Both the position numbers and the translations under genes were made by a program. A stretch of DNA of 64,000 nt from Phyllosticta citribraziliensis. Its lineage: Eukaryota. The stretch covers positions 62,001 to 126,000 of the forward strand of contig NW_027117344.1 of assembly GCF_038025025.1 (NCBI RefSeq), in the 5' to 3' direction. The notes beneath the pieces were generated by a model. It did no database searches and had not been told where the DNA came from. It was given only the letters and a program-made list of their open reading frames with translations. Within the stretch, counting starts at the first letter, position 1. Each line of letters begins with the position of its first letter. Below, piece by piece: positions 13,971 through 56,671 of this stretch.

Positions 13971-14053
13971 CAGATCGGCCAGGACTTGAACCTGGGACTT
14001 GCCGTGGATATGATGTTTAACCATGACATGCGTTACCACTACGCCACCGATCC
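13971..14053 (-). tRNA. Atypical tRNA-like gene (isotype undetermined; possibly pseudo-tRNA)
   Basis: Acceptor GGATCGG/CCGATCT, D-arm GCGT-AGTGGTA-ACGC (A box), T-arm CCAGG-TTCAAGT-CCTGG (B box), downstream T-tracts; anticodon arm non-canonical. Confidence 0.75.
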
Positions 14054-28074: not shown

Positions 28075-31000
28075 ATGGACGCCTATCCTCTCCCATATGT
28101 CGAGCATAACCTGCCCTTCGTCGTCTTGTCGGGTTTGGGCTCCGACACGCTGATCAATTCGTCCTACGAGCCCCACCCTCTTCTCAGAGACCGCGGAATC
28201 GAAATCGACTCGGCCGTACCAGTCGTCTCGGGCGATCGCGCCCTCCAATTGCGCCAGGAGTTCCTCAACGCCGACGGAAGAGATGCTCCGTGGAATAGTT
28301 TGCCCAGGAATAGAGGGGATGTCAAGGGCTTTCGGGTCAAGGCTGTTGGGAGGGTAGGTCAGGCAGGCCTGTCTTGATGTAATCCACAGGTAGACTCATG
28401 CAGCCGTAGGGATATGTTTTACCTCCTCGCAAAGCTCAGCCGCCCCAAATATCACCAGATGAGACTCCGCCAGGCACCCCTCAATTTGGAAATGGCCACA
28501 AATGGGTCCTGCATTCGCCCATTTCTCCCCTCTCGCCCGGATCGCCCACCTTTCCAGACGGTGTCATGACGCCACTGTGGATCGCAAAGCACCAATACCA
28601 CATCCCCGCCGCCTTCATTTCCTTCTTCACTCTTACATCCGAAGATGGCAGAGATAGCCTCAACGACAACCAGCTCAAAGCTGAAATCAACCGCATCAAA
28701 AGCCTCTTCCTCAACTCTGGCTACAAGACACATTATGCCGTGGTCCTTTTGAGTGACAAGACCATTTTCGAATCGCCAGAGATTGAGGACCGACTGGCCA
28801 ACATTCGTAGAACGACCGGATTGGACCCCAGGCACTCGCTCTTCTTTCTTCCCGCCAGCTCCACCAGAGCCGAGCTTGCGTCGTTTGTCCACCAAGTCTT
28901 GACGACGATCCAACCAATATGCGTAGAACACTACCGTGACTTGTCAAAACATGCAAGACGCAAGAAGAATAGAAGCAATATCCCTCCTCCAACTGCACCA
29001 CCAACGCGCGGTCCAATCCACACGCTTGCAGCTCCTGGCTGGAACGTGCGCTACGACTTTAAATTAGGCGTCTTTTCCGAGTTTCGACAGGAAATGGAGG
29101 CAGCGTGTAGGCATTACAGTCTCGCCCTTGATGGTTTGCTAGAAGGAGACGGAGTCTTTGAGACCACGGCAAGCTGGTCGCCTCGATGGGATGAGACACG
29201 CTTGCTTGCTGACGCCATCGCAATCCGCATAGTCAGATGCTCCATGTGGAACAATAACCCGACTTCTGCCGTTCAATCGTGGCAAAACTACAAGGACAGG
29301 ATGCGAGATTTGCTCGACAGGCGCGGCAAAGGATCTGCAAACTATGGCTGGCAGGCCTGGGAGAGCAGGTGGGCCGTCATCATGGCAGAAATCATCCAGC
29401 GCGTTCAGCCTCCGATTTTCCAAATTGTCGAGAACAACGCTGAAAGATACCCCCTCTTTTCACCTCCGGAGAAACAGTTTCCAGTCGGCGAGAGGCTTGC
29501 ACCTTGGCATCTCGTACACCATCCGGGATACTGGTACAAGGTTGCCGCAGAACGTGCCGTTGCTCGGAGGGTGCTTGCTGAAGACTTGCCAGAGGAAGAC
29601 AGAATGCCTCCAGGAATGTCTCCTGCAACAAAAGTGGCGAATCGTTATGGCACGTACGACACATATCTAGTACCGGAGCCGCATGTGGAATTCCCGCACC
29701 CGGCTCACGGAGGTCAAGGCTACGACCACGCGGCCGACGTCGTCGACCTCTTCAACAAGGCCATTGGCGAGTTCCACGCGCGAGGCCAACAACGTACTTG
29801 TGACAAGCTCCAGTTGGAAATTGGAAAAGAGCTTCTGCACGCTGGCAGACACAGCGAAGCCATGGGCTCTCTCAAGCCCTTGTGGGAGGGCACGTGTTGG
29901 CGCGATGAGAGATGGTGGCCTCTTGTTTCTGAAGTGACGTGGGCGCTCAACACTTGCTCCAAGCACTGCGGCGAGGAAGAAACATTTTTGGCAACTGAGT
30001 GGGAATTGCACAGCAAACGTAAGTGGGAGCCTTGTTGAGAGGGAAATGCTGACTCTTTAGTGCTTCGTACGAATCCCAAAAAGGTGTATGAGTTCAACAA
30101 TTGCTTGGATACTTTTGCACAGCAAGATGGCCACGTTTTTCCAAAGGTTACCATCGACGCAGGAAAAGTCATGTCGTGTTGTAAGTGAACAATCTCCATG
30201 TCTGAATCTAGCTAACAAGTAAGTATCGACAACCGTCACTTTTGCCGCTGGTGAGGGGCATGTCGCCGAGCCACTGTACACTCAAATTGCAGTGAAATCC
30301 AACGCTCAGCGCGGATCGATGCCCATCACCGTGTCCAGCATCCGCATCGACTTTGTCGGTCCGCTCGGCAGGATAGAGCTTCAACATGAAGCCAAGTCCG
30401 ATACCACAGCAGCCACCGAAGTCAGTCTCACAGAGGTGATTCGGTCTGGCACTGCACCCAGTTTCAAAGGCTGCGCCGACCTTTCCTTTCCTGCCGGCGC
30501 AGTACGGGTCTTTAACTTTCCCATCACTCTCAAAGAAGACGGGGACGTCAATGTGCAGCAGATTTCTTTTGAAATACAAACCGAGCGCTTCACGTTGCAG
30601 TCTGTTTATGAAGGACAGCCTGATATGCCTCCAGCGTGGTGGTACATGGGCAAGAATGGCCTCAAGTCGAAGCGATTGGCAAGAAATCCAGAAGATCCAG
30701 TCCTTCGAGTCCTCCCCAAACCGCCCAAAATGGAGGTCCGGCTCGTCAACTTGCAAAAGCAGTACTACACGAATGAGATTGTGGTATTGGATTTGCAGAT
30801 CAAGAATGACGAAGACGAGGACACGGAAGCGTCGCTGGAGATTCAACTCCTCAACCACACCAAGGAGTATCTCGACTTTGATTGGATCGACAATGAGCAG
30901 GCTGAGACGTCCAGTCTCCCAGGCAAGTCGATTGGGAAAATGGCTCCGGGAAGCAAACAGACGAAAAGCCTCTCTTTCATTGCGCCACCCGATTCGCAAA

Positions 31001-32043
31001 AGTACTCGCTCGAAGTCAAGGTGGTCTACCACGTGCTCAGCGATCCGGATGTGCCAATATCCAAAATCATGGCCGGCGAGCTCGTCTTCATCGACCCATT
31101 CGAAGCCACGTACGACTTTGCGCCCCAAGTGCACCCTGACCCCTGGCCCAGCTTCTTCCGTGTCGACGACGCGCAGAAGCCTGAAGCGCCCAATGCGACG
31201 GCACCGACGCAGGCCTTTGGTCTCGCCTCGCGGTACTTGCTCAAAGCACGAATAGGATCGTACGCTGAGGAGGATCTCGTCATTGCCGACGCTGATCTCG
31301 CTGTCCATTCTGTCCACGGTGGTGCCGTCTGCGCCGTGTCGAAAGTCCCCGTGGTCGATGCCGAAACCGTCATCTCGCCGCAAGCTGTGCATTTACGCAG
31401 TTTTGTCGTCGATGTGCGCAAGGTCAGCCTCGAAGACCGCCGCAGCTCGGCGCTCGAGAGCAGCATCAGCGTTACATGGCGGCGCAAGCGGCCGCTGTCC
31501 GACGTTGCTGGAGACGCGCTGGAGAAGCCCATCACCAGCACGATTGCGCATCCTCGACTGGTCGCGTCGAATGCGGAGCCGCGTGTCCTGGCATCGGCAA
31601 GACCATCGCACACGACGCTCTCTGCTGTTCCCCTGTCCACACCCGCACCGTCGGACGCAGAGACAGGCACGGCACCTCCCAAAACCCCCACGCAAACCCA
31701 ACAACCACCACAGCTCATCCACCTCACGCTCTACCTCGAGAACCCGACCATGCACTTCCTCACCTTCGACGTGTCCATGGACGCATCCGACGACTTTGCC
31801 TTTGCCGGCCCCAAGCTGACGGCCCTCCACGTGCTCCCGCTGTCGCGCTGTGCCGTCAGGTACAACATTCTCCCGCTAGTCAGCGGCAAGTGGGTCGAGA
31901 TGCGGTGTCGCGTGCAGGATCGCTATTTCAACAAGGTGCTGAGGGTTTTGCCGACGGAGGGCATGAGGGCTGTTGGTGGGAAGGAGGGTGGCAAAGAGGG
32001 AGGGGGCGTGGCCGTTTGGGCTGATGTGGTTGAGGGGGAGTAG
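28075..32043 (+). CDS. TRAPP III subunit TRAPPC11 (foie gras/Gryzun domain) homologue; 4 exons
   Basis: MDAYPLPYVEHNLPFVVLSGL; HSPISPLSPGSPTFPDGVMTPLW; YRDLSKHARRKKNR; WNVRYDFKLGVFSEFRQEM; C-terminal LENPTMHFLTF. Confidence 0.85.
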
Positions 32044-32470
32044 AGTGGTGGTGGAGAGAGTTGAGGGTTGTGGACGACGTAGGGTGCTTTACGTTATGAC
32101 AATCGTATGCTATTGCATGATGAATATGGATATGATAGTAAAGACTACGGTGAAGTGAGACTTGAATGCTGCGAGGGCTTGGTGCAGGGTAAGTTGAATG
32201 CTCAGATGAGCCTGAAGGATGATTGCGCTGTGGCGGACACGCAGTGTTCAAAGTATTCAAGCATCTAAGACAACAACACCATGTGTCTGAGAAGTATCAA
32301 GTAGCCATCCAGCGCAACATCTTTTCTCGCCTCCAGACAGTAAAACATCAAAGCCAGCAAGACATCGCGGGCGCAGCCAACACACTGAACGCCAGCACGG
32401 CCGCCTGCCTACCCACCCACCTACATATAATCTCCAAACGCTCACCCTCTCCCAACGAACCACCGTAATC

Positions 32471-32656
32471 GGGCCCGTGGTGCATCTGGCGGGGGCCCGG
32501 GACTCACCAGCACAACCGCTGACGCCCGTATTCTAGACACTTGGGCGGCTTTTAGGCAGGGGGTGCACGAGATACCGGACACGCACTGTCACGATCGCAG
32601 CGTTAGCTCGGCGTTCGATTCGCGTGGTTCGCCCTGGGCCCGGGGCTTTTTTTTTT
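32471..32656 (+). ncRNA. Putative Pol III ncRNA, copy A (non-tRNA)
   Basis: TATAA 32426; A box TGGTGCATCTGG at 32478; B-box hairpin GCG-TTCGATT-CGC (GTTCGATTC 32613-32621); terminal stem GGGCCCG/TGGGCCC; T10 terminator 32647-32656. Confidence 0.7.
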
Positions 32657-32857
32657 GTTTGTCGCTTCTTTTTTTGGAGGTGTGGAGGAGAAATGGTCAA
32701 GAGAAGAGTAATAGCGGCACCGACAACAAATCCAGAGCGGCGGCATGATCACGAGCAGGCAGTGAGCAGGCAGTGAGCAGGAAACCAACTGCGCCCACCT
32801 ACCTACCACCAGACCGTACGATATAACGCGCAACCGCAACCTCATAATCATCAAACA

Positions 32858-33034
32858 GGCCGGTTAGCGCAACGGAACAGGACACAGTCTCAACGTCGTT
32901 GTCACCGACATCCCTAAGAGTAAAACCCCGGGGTGTGTGAGCCAGGGTTGGCGCGCTGCGCGTAGCAGAGCTTGGCCCAGAGTTCGACTCCCGCTTCGGG
33001 TAGCGAATACAGGTGCGGGTGCACGTTTCTTTTT
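32858..33034 (+). ncRNA. Putative Pol III ncRNA B (non-tRNA, not obviously related to A/C)
   Basis: TATAA 32822; A box TAGCGCAACGG 32865-32875; B box GTTCGACTC 32982-32990; T-tracts from 33026. Confidence 0.62.
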
Positions 33035-33306
33035 GCTTTTTGTTTTGGCGGGCGGTGGGAGTTGAGGAGGGAGAGGGAGCGGGCGGTCTTTTTGGTGGCC
33101 GGGAGGGCGCGGCGGCTCTGAGAGTACGCTTTGGGGTATGGCCGTAGCGTTTCGCCTGTACTCTTTTTGCTACTCTTCTGGCACTCCTCCTCGACATCGA
33201 TTTTGACATTGAATATCAGCTGATGTTTTACTCCCGCGGCGTCACCGTCGAGGTGTTGTCTTGTATTGCTAGAACGCCAGTCACTGCGCAACGAACCACT
33301 GGAATT

Positions 33307-33493
33307 GGGCCTGTGGTGTAACTGGTCGAGGGGACTGGGCCGCCCTTTCACTGACGTCTAGAAATCACAATGAAGGCGGCTTTTAGGTGACTGGGCGGGA
33401 CAAACCTCCGAGGGAGCAGCACGAGTTCGGTTCCAGCGGTTCGCCCAGGGCCCGGGGCGTCTTTTCACGATGGGCTGTACTTGTGGCTTTTTT
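33307..33493 (+). ncRNA. Putative Pol III ncRNA, copy C (paralogue of copy A)
   Basis: GGGCCTG-TGGTGTAACTGG start; GGCGGCTTTTAGG 33375-33387; GTTCGGTTC 33425-33433; GGTTCGCCCAGGGCCCGGGGC 33438-33458; T4 at 33462 and T6 at ~33488. Confidence 0.68.
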
Positions 33494-33582
33494 CCTCGAT
33501 GGGAAGGTTGTAAGTGGAGTTGAGATGCTGCATGGCACTGCAGTGATTGAGGTAGACGTGCTTGACGATTGACTACCACTAT

Positions 33583-35378
33583 CTACAGCCTTTCTAGAAT
33601 GCTACGCACAACCTCACCGACCTTGTCTGCCTCGACGTCTTGGAATATGTCTAACCGTCGACACCGCACCTCTGCTTTGCGGTCTTGCTGCCATTTTGTG
33701 CCCAACACGACAATCACGCCCGGGCCCATGAGCTCTGCGTCCTTGAGCTTCCATCCCAATCCTCTGTCCTTGCGGTCGTCAACAACGACATCCAAGTCCT
33801 GCAGTGCGCCCGCAGCTGCCCACTCAACATCAGCGGCGTCAATCTTGTCTGACGACGGCACGACGAGCACCTCCCACGGCGCAATGGCGCGCGGCCAGTT
33901 GAGCCCGCGTTCGTCGCGCAGCAAGCCCGCGGCGGCGCTCAAGAGTCGACTCACGCCGATGCCGTGGCAGCCCATCTGCACGGGACGGCTGACGGCGCGG
34001 CGGTCGCTCTCGCCCGGCAGCGGCGGACTGCTGGTCACCAAACCCAGCGGCGCGCTGTATCGCGTGCCCAGGTAAAACGTGTGGCCGATTTCGATGGCAC
34101 GGTTGGCGGTCAAGGAGCCCGAAGGAGCATTGCATGACGGACAAGGAGTTGAAAGCTCCACGGCGAAGAGAGACTGCGAGGCCGGCGCCACGTGGGTTGT
34201 GATGATCTCCTTGTCGTGTGCCGGCGGCGGCAACGTTACCGTACCCGCCTCGACGTGCCGCGCGACATTGGCGTCGAGGATGCGAATGACCTTTTTGTCC
34301 TTGTGGTCGCTGACGTGGGAGTCGGGGACGGCGGTAAAAGCGGTGTCGAGGTCTGAGTAGATTTTCTTGACGGCGTGAATGTTGATTTGGGCTTCAGCCG
34401 CATTGTTGACCGCGTCCACCATGGCAAAGACTTCAACGTACTTCCACCGGTCCTTGCTGAGGCCGCGCCAGCTTTGGATGAGGCCGGGAGTCTCTAGCTC
34501 CGACGCCCGCGGCGTCGCTACCTCTTCATTGGCCACGTACGAGCAGCTGTTGCACGTAAAGATGGTGTCCTCGCCGTTGGGCGAGACGAAGTGGTATTCG
34601 TGACTCAAGTCGCCTCCGATGGCACCAGAGTCTGCCTGGGCGACGAGATACGGAATCTTGAGCTCGGCGAAGAAGTTGGCGTACGCCTCGCGGACTTGCT
34701 CGTACGTCTCCATGGCTTCACTTTGCAGGTGGTCGAACGTGTACAGGTCCTTCATCAGAAACTCCTTTGCGCGCAGGAGACCTTGGCGTGGTCTCATTTC
34801 ATCACGGTACTTGCGTGAGATTTGGTACAGACGAAGCGGCAGCGATTTGTAGCTGACCAGCAGGCTCTTGACCAGAGACGTGATTTCTTCTTCGTGCGTG
34901 GGACATAGGAGCAGCTTGTTCCCTTTGCGATCGCGAAGTTTTAACAGCTGGGTTCCTTGAAGTCGGTTCGTCTTTTTCCATAGCTCTTCGGATGAGATTG
35001 AGGAGAGAGAGACCTTGTTGGCGTCGATGGATGACATGTGTTTGTCGATGAGTTTTTCGAGTTTGGCTTGCACACGCTGTCCCAATGGCAGCATGTGGAA
35101 TACTCCAGAATGAGCCTGTCTGAGGAATCCACCTCGGACGAGGTCTGCGGTCGTGTCATCGATATCCTCTCTCTTTTCTTTTTCTGTTAGGCCGCTAGTG
35201 GGAATCCAGAATTTGCTCAATCGGTCATATTTGTAGGGCTGGATGATCAGCACAAGTATGATTACGGGCGTAAAAGTCTCACAGTTGAAGTAGAAAAAAG
35301 GCGGCTCGAGGAACTGCAGAGCGTTGACGGAGCCGCAGCAGACCGTAGAGAAAATCGCTGGAAAGACGGGACGAGCAT
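33583..35378 (-). CDS. AIM10: Mitochondrial prolyl-tRNA synthetase (bacterial-type ProRS); one 5' intron
   Basis: Spliced presequence MLVPSFQRFSLRSAAAP..RLFSTST|PYKYDRL; PTHEEEIT, KYRDEMRPRQGLLRAKEFLMKDLY, IEIGHTF, MGCHGIGVSR. Confidence 0.9.
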
Positions 35379-44297: not shown

Positions 44298-45486
44298 ATG
44301 CTCCCCTACCGCGCCGCCCTCCGCAGGGCCGGCCAGAGTCGCCCAGCCCTCTGCACAGCCGTCCGGACGGCAGCAACAGTCACTACCACGGCATCCAAAC
44401 CGCAAGAATGGGCTGCGACCTCATCCGAATGGAGCGCCGCCGAACGGGTGAATCCACAGGCCACGTTCATGGCACAGCCCCCGAATCGTCGGGCAAAGGA
44501 GACGACTGCAATGAGGACATACACCCCGCGCACACCTGGTCTTCGGCACTTGGTGCGGCCAATCAACGACCATTTGTGGAAAGGAAGGCCAGTCAAGTCT
44601 TTGACTATTCCCAAGCTCGGATATGGAAAGGGAGGAAGAAACAACTACGGCCGCGTCACCGTGAGACACCGTGGTGGCGGACACAAGCGCAGGATACGCA
44701 CAGTCGATTTCAAGCGGTTGGAGCCAGGCAAACAATACGTCGAACGCATCGAGTACGACCCCGGACGCAGCGCGCACATTGCTCTCTTGAAGCACATGAA
44801 GACGGGCAAGTTGACCTACATTCTCGCCGCCGAAGGAATGAGAGCCGGAGATACCGTCGAGAGCTTCATGAAGGGTATCCCAAAGGACCTCATGGCAGCA
44901 ATGGGTGGCACCATTGATCCTGGTGTTTTGGCGGCCAAGACTGCTTTCCGCGGCAACTGCTTGCCTTTGCACATGGTGCCGTTGGGTTCTCAAGTCTACG
45001 CCGTTGCGTCCAAGGCCAGAGGCAAGGCTGTTTTTTGTCGTTCCGCTGGCACTTACGCCACCGTCATGTCCAGAGGAGCAACCGCAAAACAAGCAAACGA
45101 CGTCATCCTCAGATTGCAGAGCGGCGAAGTCAGAATATGTCACAAGGACGCATGTGCCACCATTGGTATTGCCAGCAACCCAATGCACCAGTACCGATCG
45201 CTAGGAAAGGCTGGTCGATCCAGGTGGTTGAACAAGAGGCCGGCGGTCAGAGGTATGGCCATGAACGCATGCGACCATCCTCACGGTGGTGGAAGAGGTA
45301 AATCAAAGGGTAACAAACCGCCGCAAAGTCCTTGGGGAACTCTGGTAAGTCAACCTGTCTTGATTGGTTCGTATCTAACTTTTACAGGCCAAAGGTGGTT
45401 ACAAGACTCGGCCCAGGCGCAAGAAGAACCCTTGGTTGATTCAGGATCGCGAGAGGAACCAGGGCAAGAGGAGAAAGACCAAATAG
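44298..45486 (+). CDS. RML2: Mitochondrial ribosomal protein uL2m; intron ~45344-45387
   Basis: GGRNNYGRVTVRHRGGGHKRR, IEYDPGRSAHIAL, RSAGT, VRGMAMNACDHPHGGG; last exon AKGGYKTR. Confidence 0.95.
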
Positions 45487-55900: not shown

Positions 55901-56671
55901 TCACTCCAGGCGCATCCGCCACAGGCCGTCGCCCAGATAGTGGCCAGCATCCAACGCGACGCCCTTCTTCTTGTCCTTGATCTCCTGGGAGCCGACCTTG
56001 AGCTGGCCGACCAGGCAGGCGTGCTCCTTGCCCTCGGCGTCGACGACGACGACGTCGCCGGCATTCAGCTCGCCGTGGGCGTCGTAGAGCGGGTCGCCGC
56101 AGCCGGGCAGGCGGCCGCCGGCGGACGTCAGGCCCGGCGCCATGAGCGAGGCGCCCGATAGCACGAAGCGGATGGCGCCGCGGTCGATGCGCATGCGCTT
56201 GAAGCACTGCGGGTACTTGTGGACCAGCGTCAGGTGCGGGATGAGCGGGTCGTCCATGTGTTGGTAGAAGAGCGGGTCATGGCCGAGGGCGTAGAGGGAG
56301 ACGCGGTCGGGGCTGGGAGACGTCAGTCAGTGTCTGTTCAATCGTCGTGGTTTGGACTGCTGGTTATGTGGAGGTTGTGGAGCGGAGACAAAGGCGGCGG
56401 GCTGGCCAGTGGGTAGGTAGGTAATGTTGGTAAGGTGGAGACGGCCAGGTAGTAGACGCACAGCTTCAGCAGATCCAGCTGCTCCTTCTTGGGGATTATC
56501 TGGTCCAGGTACGGCTCGAGCAGCGGGTACTGCTCGGCGACCTTTGCGCGGATGCCGCGCTGGACGGACGACTTGACCTTTGTTTTGGCGCCCGGCGCGA
56601 TGGAGCTGTGGCGGGTCGTCAGTATGGAATGCGAGGGATCGAGCGGGGACAGCGCACTCTTTTTTGAACAT
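55901..56671 (-). CDS. TMA20: Translation machinery-associated protein 20 (MCT-1, PUA domain); 3 exons
   Basis: MFKK, KTKVKSSVQRGIR, PHLTLVHKYP, DRGAIRFVLSGASLMAPGLTS, HYLGDGLW. Confidence 0.92.

Follow-up and report, generated by a model that had tools for sequence, protein, structure and literature searches.

Transfer RNA genes carry type 2 promoters of RNA polymerase III (Pol III), accompanied in fission yeast and plants by an upstream TATA element, and the list of fungal Pol III products, mostly based on yeasts, is short: tRNAs, 5S, U6, SRP RNA, RNase P RNA and few others. BC1 is a lineage-restricted Pol III RNA. MVP and Ro60, the partner proteins of vault and Y RNAs, are not known from Pezizomycotina. 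The rodent 4.5SH and 4.5SI RNAs are lineage-restricted Pol III RNAs (PMC3440375). AfuSINE2 of Aspergillus fumigatus is a fungal tRNA-derived SINE (PMC5063351), and Helenus elements (TRIMp3), which are miniature LTR retrotransposons, are reported among fungi from Basidiomycota only (Pucciniales and some Agaricomycetes; PMC10886601). "Intergenic structure 2" (PMC8216456) is a 144-nt element of Pezizomycotina and a candidate for comparison with the present units. The literature found on such Pol III non-coding RNAs (ncRNAs) in filamentous fungi consists of the Neurospora milRNA study (PMC3547838), surveys of SINEs and TRIMs, and two comparative screens that report no stand-alone RNA of Pol III type.

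Three units of the same (+) strand, designated A, B and C, occupy one intergenic gap of Phyllosticta citribraziliensis. Like tRNA genes, they have a 7-nt 5' segment, an in-register A box, a GTTCR B-box-like motif, a T-run, a TATA and C/A-rich region upstream (in A and B) and a candidate start about 8 nt upstream (in A); unlike tRNA genes, they have no cloverleaf, anticodon arm or T arm, the A-B spacing is 110-135 nt and the length is 150-180 nt. The 4.5SH, 4.5SI and BC1 RNAs are also short Pol III RNAs of narrow taxa with an unknown or regulatory function, complementary ends, a tRNA- or SINE-like origin and multi-copy or tandem genes, but they are mammalian, about 100-150 nt long and without sequence similarity to the units, whose own link to Pol III and stability as RNA are putative. 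An internal promoter of the A/B-box type is also found in vault RNA (RF00006), and a terminal stem formed from both ends, a variable middle and an oligo-U 3' end in both vault and Y RNA (RF00019), yet neither model matches the units at E ≤ 10; the likeness to vault and VA RNA proposed in an earlier note on this DNA extends to the layout and not to a match with the models of those families. Fungal tRNA-derived SINEs begin with a tRNA-related head that carries Pol III boxes, and B is multi-copy as they are, whereas the units differ in the absence of target-site duplications, in flank homology, in T-rich tails and in the low copy number and tandem arrangement of A and C. Helenus elements (PMC10886601) likewise have two direct repeats with tRNA-like A/B boxes around a few hundred bp and occur in fungi, but the units have no TG..CA ends, polypurine tract, 5-bp duplication or primer-binding site (the last judged without a tool). 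The milRNA precursors of Neurospora crassa (PMC3547838) are intergenic, are transcribed by Pol III and carry T clusters, TATA-like elements and, in some, putative A/B boxes; they differ in that the present units have no predicted long Dicer-type hairpin and no sequence relation to them. The three units look like tRNA genes, but they probably encode longer RNAs outside the described families, with A and C as sister copies.

The gap is flanked by a TRAPPC11-like gene on one side and a gene for a mitochondrial-type prolyl-tRNA synthetase on the other, which are convergent, so that it lies 3'-3' between housekeeping genes. Protein hits place the window in a Dothideomycete of the Phyllosticta group. 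No + strand ORF of at least 100 aa is present within 32261-33568, the antisense ORFs at 32799-33209 and 32914-33351 match no Pfam family at E ≤ 1, and no transposon genes were found near the units. The features of the units are given in Table 1; positions are those of the window, by which is meant the whole 64-kb stretch of DNA that was analysed. Every sequence feature listed in the earlier note is present where it had been placed (CTGACG, TCTAGA, GTTCGRTTC and the GCCGCC/GGCGGC arms of C included).

Table 1. Positions of units A, B and C and of their sequence features in the window.
Feature	Position	Strand	Remark
Unit A	32471-32646	+	
TATA-like element ATATAAT	32425..32431	+	upstream of A; 32-38 nt before contig end 32463
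Upstream block CAACGAACCAC	32453..32463	+	common to A and C
5' segment of A	from 32471	+	7 nt, G/C-rich
A box of A, TGGTGCATCTGG	32478-32489	+	tRNA register
Hairpin of A	32523-27/32543-47	+	followed by internal T4 at 32550-53
Conserved GGCGGCTTTTAGG in A	32544-56	+	
B-box-like GTTCGATTC in A	32613-21	+	
3' block of A	32626-46	+	shared with C
Predicted terminal stem of A	32471-76 with 32636-41; 32479-82 with 32630-33	+	
T10 terminator of A	32647..32656	+	back-up T7 at 32669-75
Unit B	32858-33025	+	
TATA-like element ATATAA	32821..32826	+	32-37 nt upstream of B
5' start of B, GGCCGGT	from 32858	+	7 nt
A box of B, TAGCGCAACGG	32865-75	+	
B box of B, GAGTTCGACTCC	32980-91	+	
3' hairpin of B		+	arms GTGC..GCAC
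T-rich terminator region of B	33026..33046	+	TTTC, T5, T5, T4
Unit C	33307-33458	+	
Upstream block CAACGAACCAC of C	33289..33299	+	
A box of C, TGGTGTAACTGG	33314-25	+	
Hairpin arms of C	GCCGCC 33339-44/GGCGGC 33375-80	+	followed by T4 at 33381-84
GTTCGGTTC in C	33425-33	+	counterpart of the B-box-like motif
3' block of C	33438-58	+	shared with A
T-runs behind C	T4 33462-65; T6 33488-93	+	T4 weak; T6 about 30 nt further on

The Pol III type 2 arrangement claimed for the locus, in which an A box and a B box lie inside the unit and a T-run comes after them, was found in all three units, box register included. A scan for an A box, 20-160 nt, a B box, at most 70 nt and then TTTT returned five loci in the window (A, B, C, the true tRNA gene and one site within a coding ORF); 50 shuffles averaged 0.32 loci, with at most 3 in any one of them. 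T8, R9, G10, Y11, A14 and G18-G19 fall exactly 7 nt past the G start in A, B and C, which puts the A box at tRNA positions 8-19 after a 7-nt segment, and the B-box-like motif lies at the spacing given above in each unit. In A and C the B box is matched only loosely, A58 or C61 being absent from one or other motif. Each unit closes with a GC hairpin and a T-run, namely T10 after A, T5+T5+T4 after B and T4 directly after C, for which the T6 further downstream is the likely effective terminator. TATA elements precede A and B, and their upstream regions are C/A-rich, as at the real tRNA gene of the window, where the 5' end is preceded by TATATAAT at 49-56 nt and by a C/A-rich spacer of the same kind. 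No TATA element was found upstream of C, where the segment of about 50 nt that bears it in A is missing between GAACGCCAGTCAC (33272) and the CAACGAACCAC block. Among the observations against a Pol III reading are the internal T4 conserved in both A and C, and the lack in C of a TATA element and of more than a T4 directly behind it.

Units A and C, direct repeats 836 bp apart, are true paralogues that arose when one gene was duplicated as DNA. The proposal that they form a two-member paralogous family is borne out by their global alignment (z=11.98), which none of 300 dinucleotide shuffles equalled, and the internal part with both ends stripped still gave z=3.87 (0/300 shuffles as good). The 19-mer GGGCCYGTGGTGYAWCTGG occurs in the window only at 32471 and 33307, and a search allowing up to 3 mismatches returned 2 matches, with at least 2 matches in 0/100 shuffles; the 21-mer GGTTCGCCCNGGGCCCGGGGC is likewise confined to two sites, 32626 and 33438, and 0/100 shuffles reached 2 matches. 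The 13-mer GGCGGCTTTTAGG is exact at 32544 and 33375, and alone, at up to 2 mismatches, it is not significant (at least 2 matches in 40/100 shuffles). The middles of A and C have diverged, with many indels. Similarity continues beyond the RNA both upstream (CAACGAACCAC, GAACGCCAG) and downstream, and because it spans the flanks, it points to duplication of DNA and not to retroposition.

No similarity was detected between B and A (z=1.09, 42/300 shuffles as good) or between B and C (z=0.77, 63/300). MAFFT hinted at blocks that would make B a distant member of the A/C family, which was rejected since the alignment scores lie within the shuffles and a covariance model of A and C does not find B at E ≤ 10. 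Neither blastn nor the unfiltered A/C model found further A/C copies in the window; the best other match to the model, at 17.4 bits (56132-56207, - strand), reads as coding sequence. The A/C copies seen are the two in the window and A-like and C-like copies in a relative. Metagenome matches to the 21-mer (8 loci) are ascribed to chance, being 67-75% GC and devoid of a T-run or tRNA-like 5' part; the A/C model scored them at no more than 29.6 bits, versus 163-205 for real copies. A scan of viral contigs with the 19-mer gave 4 loci, without tRNA and at no more than 11.3 bits, and one with the first 21 nt of B gave 0 loci.

The earlier statement that none of the units folds as a cloverleaf or bears signatures of U1-U6, SRP, RNase P/MRP or 5S RNA agrees with all searches made here, in which no unit proved to be a tRNA or matched an Rfam family. 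ARAGORN called one tRNA gene in the window, outside the A-B-C region; with introns allowed it called 0 genes on the region, and relaxed runs gave 7 and 5 calls, none on unit boundaries. The tRNA model RF00005 had no match at E ≤ 10 whether the whole region or a single unit was searched, and the Rfam search of the window at gathering thresholds returned only the tRNA at 13971-14053. At E ≤ 10, Rfam gave 3 matches on the region and 3, 1 and 2 on the single units, none credible and all at or below 19.4 bits, versus gathering scores of 33-90. A tRNA with one long intron or insertion was rejected on the ARAGORN result and on excision variants, of which 0/2244 per unit were called tRNA; a look by eye only for two-intron solutions showed no anticodon arm. 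CTGAC and TTTTAG in A and C resemble the branch point and 3' splice site of a spliceosomal intron, a candidate dropped because reading the sequence showed no acceptable 5' splice site and B has no such motifs.

The description of the RNAs as structured found no statistical support here: the minimum free energy (MFE) z-scores of the three units (-0.13, -0.51 and +0.50) are no better than shuffles, and the A/C consensus fold is built from two sequences only. In that fold 4 of 34 pairs are compensatory, and the terminal stem consists of 20 pairs in five helices. Pairing of the 5' and 3' ends, also proposed earlier, appears in this two-sequence consensus, in which the 3' block pairs with the 5' end, whereas the MFE of A favours local hairpins over the terminal stem. 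Both A and C retain the hairpin ahead of the inner T4, each with a 5' arm of its own. No long perfect hairpin is present in the MFE folds of A, B or C.

Four sequencing runs (X1, X3, X5 and X6) were available as assembled contigs, with the kind of run guessed (X1 "RNA?", X3 "DNA?"), and contig ends are read as hints at transcript ends and not as measurements. A 216-nt contig of X1 comprises 22 loose letters, which we take to be the end of an Illumina adapter, followed by 32463-32656 with 0 differences. Its first base after the adapter is the last base of the CAACGAACCAC block of A, 8 nt before the G start, which makes 32463 a candidate start site, and its other end is the last T of T10. The contig looks as a primary Pol III transcript of A would, the kind of run being a guess. 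A 170-nt contig of X3, from a separate study, equals 32471-32640 with 0 differences. Both of its ends fall within GGGCCC sites, and it spans the internal GGGCCC at 32493-98, so that an ApaI-type restriction fragment is unlikely. Contigs are absent over 32300-32431 in all four runs, over 33048-33531 (C included) in X1 and over C in X6, which is not evidence of silence. For B, the terminator region is conserved up to 33046 in one paralogue among the run contigs.

Several other explanations were weighed. The units could be relics of tRNA genes, or DNA elements bound by TFIIIC (ETC-like, at a boundary between convergent genes), with an RNA that is itself functionless; we regard this as unlikely. 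It would fit A-C conservation that is strongest where the ends are promoter-like, at the A box and at the 3' GGTTCG block, the indel-rich middle, the lack of a thermodynamic signal in A, B and C, the missing TATA segment of C and the 3'-3' position between two housekeeping genes, but it does not account for the internal GGCGGCTTTTAGG, which A and C share without change and a relative almost preserves, for a hairpin ahead of it maintained through different 5' arms, or for a 3' block that pairs with the 5' end. It is also opposed by a 254-nt contig of X5, from a related organism, that differs at 3 of 145 positions over 32816-32960, which is the B promoter and the first 103 nt of B, versus 42 differences and 10 gaps in 369 at 32971-33339 nearby. 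Quite unlikely, too, is an origin as mobile elements, either tRNA-derived SINEs or a Helenus-type element in which A and C would be the two LTRs and B another repeat. The direct-repeat arrangement of A and C and the tRNA-like A/B boxes of Helenus LTRs, which occur in fungi (PMC10886601), speak for it, as does the multi-copy nature of B: B-like sequence occurs at no fewer than three further loci in X1 contigs and also in X5 and X6, all the paralogous contigs begin at 32858/32859, and a 188-nt contig equals the whole B unit (32858-33046), as expected for a repeat in a de Bruijn graph. Target-site duplications, named in the earlier note as the mark of a SINE, were not found at these units, however, with no flanking direct repeat of at least 5 nt under any of five boundary definitions (a shared 6-mer or longer has a background frequency of 16%). 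Among possible LTR boundaries of A and C, 0 TG..CA pairs have a 4-6-bp duplication and a 5-mer is common to 1 of 9384 pairs, versus about 9 expected by chance, and there is no polypurine tract before C (purine 0.33-0.53 in 15-nt windows from 33230 to 33284). The A/C homology does not stop at the units but continues into the flanks that hold the promoter and terminator. Upstream of two B paralogues the flanking sequences agree at 0.82 and are similar to the region before the window's true tRNA gene, whose C/A-rich Pol III context is common to all flanks. The tails are T-runs with back-up terminators, which are unexpected in an RNA copy, and are not A-rich or LINE-derived. Against mobility also stand the lack of further copies in the window, the lack of transposon genes nearby and the reported range of Helenus, which is confined to Pucciniales and some Agaricomycetes.

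That the units belong to a Pol II transcript, such as an unannotated lncRNA or a long UTR beginning near 32463, with fortuitous or vestigial A/B boxes, is improbable. TATAAT at 32-37 nt before the fixed contig end 32463 suits Pol II equally, the internal T4 also counts for it, and the A-B spacer (32647-32916) is covered by an X1 contig too, so that, if X1 is RNA, some molecules pass T10, which should be rare for Pol III. Against it, the two contigs of about 50 nt that cross T10 extend fewer than 31 letters to either side of it and are not counted as bridging; three units in tRNA-register grammar contrast with 0.32 expected, T10 and T5+T5 stand exactly at unit ends, the X1 contig of A stops at the terminator, and the region is devoid of a long + strand ORF. 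Least probable of all is a known RNA that the models missed (a divergent SRP RNA, RNase P/MRP RNA, snRNA, vault or Y RNA, or a tRNA with unusual introns). The tRNA-like 5' ends, which we take to resemble faintly the 5' end of yeast SRP RNA, count for it, and against it are the empty gathering-level Rfam search apart from the one tRNA, the low-scoring matches at E ≤ 10, none of which is a eukaryotic small RNA of those classes, the ARAGORN and excision results, and the consideration that essential single-copy RNAs would not have paralogues so diverged in their core.

The explanation we favour, with fair confidence, is that A, B and C are lineage-restricted, tRNA-derived Pol III ncRNA genes. They would be three independent + strand Pol III units descended from tRNA genes and no longer encoding tRNAs, with A and C as duplicates of one gene and B as a second, multi-copy family. 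TFIIIC would bind the internal A box (register 8-19) and the GTTCR/GGTTCG B-box-like motif 110-135 nt downstream, and TFIIIB would be placed on the upstream TATA and C/A-rich region. Transcription by Pol III may begin some 8 nt upstream of the G/C-rich 5' segment (at 32463 in A) and end in the T-run, giving a putative product of about 170-190 nt whose 5' end may pair with the conserved 3' block in a long, imperfect terminal stem or, alternatively, form local end hairpins. An inner hairpin of the product would end in GGCGGC-UUUU, and the 8-nt leader may be removed, as in pre-tRNA. Our best guess at function is a stable, La-bound small RNP RNA, a fungal counterpart of 4.5S, BC1, vault and Y RNAs; a source of small RNAs would be the second choice. 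Only tentatively do we suggest that two or more families of tRNA-derived Pol III RNA, hitherto undescribed, exist in Phyllosticta-group fungi: A/C, and B with its several copies. Their transcripts would lose a 5' leader as pre-tRNAs do and persist as stable small RNPs. If so, these fungi would possess a counterpart of vault, Y, BC1 or 4.5S RNAs, and the Pol III transcriptome of filamentous fungi would not be the closed set known from yeasts.

If the units are real, expressed genes, they would be lineage-specific additions to the fungal Pol III list and a clean case of tRNA genes that became new RNA genes as they expanded internally and duplicated in tandem. Neither tRNA finders nor Rfam detect such units, and genome annotations therefore show empty intergenic DNA in their place. 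The run contigs fit a discrete transcript of A and show the family in a related organism. In the A-like copy of the relative, the first B-box-like motif (GTTCGATTC) is degenerate, the inner motif has the form GGTGGTTTTTAGG, and the 3' block is kept.

Units A and C, two of three candidate tRNA-like small RNA genes in tandem, share a 5' 19-mer and a 3' 21-mer (the 3' block, at 32626 in A and 33438 in C) that occur nowhere else in the window, two matches to either being found in 0 of 100 shuffles. Both also carry a perfect copy of the 13-mer GGCGGCTTTTAGG, which taken by itself lacks significance once up to 2 mismatches are tolerated (40 of 100 shuffles). Every motif listed in the earlier note was found at its position, and its proposal that A and C are paralogous is confirmed far beyond chance, the alignment giving z=11.98 in full and z=3.87 with both ends stripped (0 of 300 shuffles as good in either case). 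The same test revealed no kinship of B with A or C (z=1.09 and 0.77), and a covariance model built from A and C (204.7 and 162.7 bits on its own members, respectively) did not find B at E<=10. Neither a sequence search nor this model found further A/C copies in the 64-kb window; the next best match (17.4 bits) was rejected as coding-like sequence. Homology between A and C extends into the promoter and beyond the terminator, which points to duplication at the DNA level.

Coordinates of the units and of neighbouring features (window positions)
Feature	Position	Strand	Remarks
tRNA gene	13971-14053	-	only one in window; ARAGORN: tRNA-Thr, anticodon GGT, 85 nt; Rfam 45.7 bits; T4/T4/T5 tail
TRAPPC11-like gene	28410-32043	+	Foie-gras ORF to 30038 and Gryzun ORF from 30292, in different frames
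Unit A	32471-32646	+	
GA-rich tract after A	32676-32712	+	
Tandem repeat, A-B spacer	32754-32781	+	11-mer GCAGGCAGTGA, two and a half copies (by reading)
Unit B	32858-33025	+	
GA-rich tract after B	33047-33087	+	
Inverted repeat, B-C spacer	33120-33168	+	GAGAGTAC / GTACTCTT around ~30 nt, running into T5
Unit C	33307-33458	+	
GA-rich tract after C	33500-33530	+	
Class II aminoacyl-tRNA synthetase gene	ends 33583	-	mitochondrial or bacterial-type prolyl-tRNA synthetase
Other grammar match	45287-45383	+	only other one; inside mitochondrial-type ribosomal protein L2 ORF

Each unit opens with 7 G/C-rich bases (the first is termed the G start). The A box comes next, its positions matching tRNA numbering exactly (T8, R9, G10, Y11, A14, G18 and G19 kept), then a GTTCR-type B-box motif 110-135 nt beyond it, and finally a T-run. 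A regular expression for this grammar matched 5 loci in the 64-kb window, namely A, B, C, the sole real tRNA gene and the L2 site, which is taken as chance; in 50 shuffles the count averaged 0.32 and never exceeded 3. A GGT anticodon is unusual in a eukaryote, and an intron or a long variable arm may therefore have misled ARAGORN. TATA elements lie 32-45 nt upstream of the G start in A and B with a C/A-rich stretch between, and the real tRNA gene shows a C/A-rich stretch of like kind, with TATATAAT lying 49-56 nt upstream. C is without a TATA element, whereas A carries about 50 extra bases with TATAAT between the common blocks GAACGCCAG(T)CAC and CAACGAACCAC; promoter and terminator of C are probably weakened. 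A purine-rich (G/A) tract stands behind every T-run, so that a T-rich, then GA-rich 3' flank is common to all three. We consider it reasonably probable that A, B and C are three tRNA-derived Pol III genes, comprising a duplicated A/C gene, of which A is probably expressed, and one gene (B) from a separate multi-copy family. They would then join a known kind of RNA, the small Pol III products that descend from tRNA genes and are restricted to single lineages; transcription by Pol III, 5' trimming, a rod-like fold and any function are what we infer for them.

Evidence from public sequencing runs consists of contigs only, and the kind of each run is guessed. A 216-nt contig from run X1 (possibly RNA) comprises 22 loose letters, which we take to be the end of an Illumina adapter, followed by 32463-32656 with 0 differences. 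Because the adapter letters abut 32463, one insert end is fixed there, 8 nt upstream of the G start and on the base that closes the conserved CAACGAACCAC block; the contig ends at the last T of the T-run after A (T10, 32647-32656). Such a contig would be expected from a complete primary Pol III transcript of A sequenced through into adapter. A further X1 contig (32647-32916) covers the A-B spacer and the first 59 nt of B, so the spacer is represented as well if X1 is RNA; two contigs of about 50 nt across T10 were not counted as bridging, since neither flank reaches 31 letters. Run X3, which belongs to a different study, is a very small library and was guessed to be DNA; there a 170-nt contig equals 32471-32640. 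As both its ends lie within GGGCCC sites, a restriction fragment was considered, but a third GGGCCC (32493-32498) is spanned, and RNA trimmed to the G start is therefore at least as likely.

That the units are functionless tRNA-gene relics or TFIIIC sites appears unlikely, and a Pol II transcript very unlikely. Mobile elements are a doubtful explanation. Helenus, miniature LTR retrotransposons described by Kojima from Pucciniales and some Agaricomycetes, has tRNA-like LTRs (PMC10886601), making A and C conceivable as an LTR pair. No unit is flanked by a direct repeat of at least 5 nt under any of five boundary definitions, so the target-site duplications named in the earlier note as a refuting sign were absent; the TG..CA boundary pair with a 4-6-bp duplication and the polypurine tract ahead of C, looked for as in Helenus, were not found, and the "internal region" would hold another Pol III-type gene. 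A known RNA missed by the models is highly improbable: a gathering-score Rfam search of the window finds only the tRNA, and relaxing the threshold to E<=10 brought up nothing but scattered matches of at most 19.4 bits (bacterial sRNA terminators, miRNA precursors and similar models), whether the region or the single units were queried. The earlier note's view that none is a tRNA stands, since ARAGORN called nothing on the A-C region, even with introns allowed, and none of 2244 single-excision variants per unit. Two antisense ORFs matched no Pfam family.

B belongs to a multi-copy family. X1 has B-like sequence on three long contigs (4933, 7167 and 4321 nt; 5-12 differences), beginning at 32858/32859 in all three, and a 188-nt contig of run X6 is the whole unit 32858-33046 (11 differences, 1 gap). 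Four contigs of run X5, from a related organism, also carry B-like sequence. Letters upstream of 32858 vary among copies (two agree at 0.82), yet all are C/A-rich, as upstream of the window's own B and of the tRNA gene, a pattern more in keeping with copies of a gene under Pol III promoters than with random-site insertions. Between X5 and the window, 3 of 145 positions differ over orthologous 32816-32960, against 42 differences and 10 gaps in 369 over 32971-33339; change is thus far slower in the promoter and first two-thirds of B than in the DNA adjoining them. X5 also has C-like contigs (28-29 differences and 4-5 gaps in 262-287 nt) and a 928-nt contig in which an A-like 3' half (15 differences in 91 nt) precedes a stretch fitting the A/C 5' start, and thus tandem A/C-type units. 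This A-like copy has a degenerate first B-box-like motif and GGTGGTTTTTAGG as its inner motif, while no change is seen in its 3' block over the rows displayed. The B-C inverted repeat could be a fourth small hairpin unit; that stretch has many differences in the related organism's contig.

The literature search found no description of such RNAs for Phyllosticta or Dothideomycetes. The accessible portions of two fungal structure screens (PMC5640933, PMC8216456) list no Pol III-type stand-alone RNA; one uncharacterised "intergenic structure 2" (144 nt, Pezizomycotina) is reported in PMC8216456. A metagenome scan returned 8 GC-rich bacterial loci, and viral-contig scans 4 matches and 0, all rejected as chance.

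The folds do not establish the structured RNA with a terminal stem proposed in the earlier note. Taken singly, the three sequences fold no more stably than their shuffles (z=-0.13, -0.51 and +0.50), and for A alone the MFE favours local hairpins at both ends. In the A+C consensus, the A-box region at the 5' end and the 3' block form a long, imperfect terminal stem (20 pairs in five helices). An inner hairpin has the conserved GGCGG directly before UUUU as its 3' arm; its 5' arm is CGCCC just after CTGA in A and GCCGCC before CTGACG in C, so it would be kept by different means. Both sides changed in 4 of 34 pairs, and such support from two sequences falls short of proof.

The units lie within a 1.5-kb gap separating two convergent genes in an otherwise ordinary gene-dense chromosome, with no transposon genes in the rest of the window. 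The Foie-gras and Gryzun ORFs are presumably separated by an intron. The closest named relatives of the synthetase are from Phyllosticta citricarpa (92%), P. capitalensis (91%) and P. citrichinensis (84%), placing the window in a Phyllosticta-like Dothideomycete; other Botryosphaeriales reach ~50-55%. An X6 contig over the synthetase gene end (33473-33600, minus strand) extends down to 33473, only ~15 nt from the opposite-strand end of unit C, so the synthetase unit and unit C may nearly abut.
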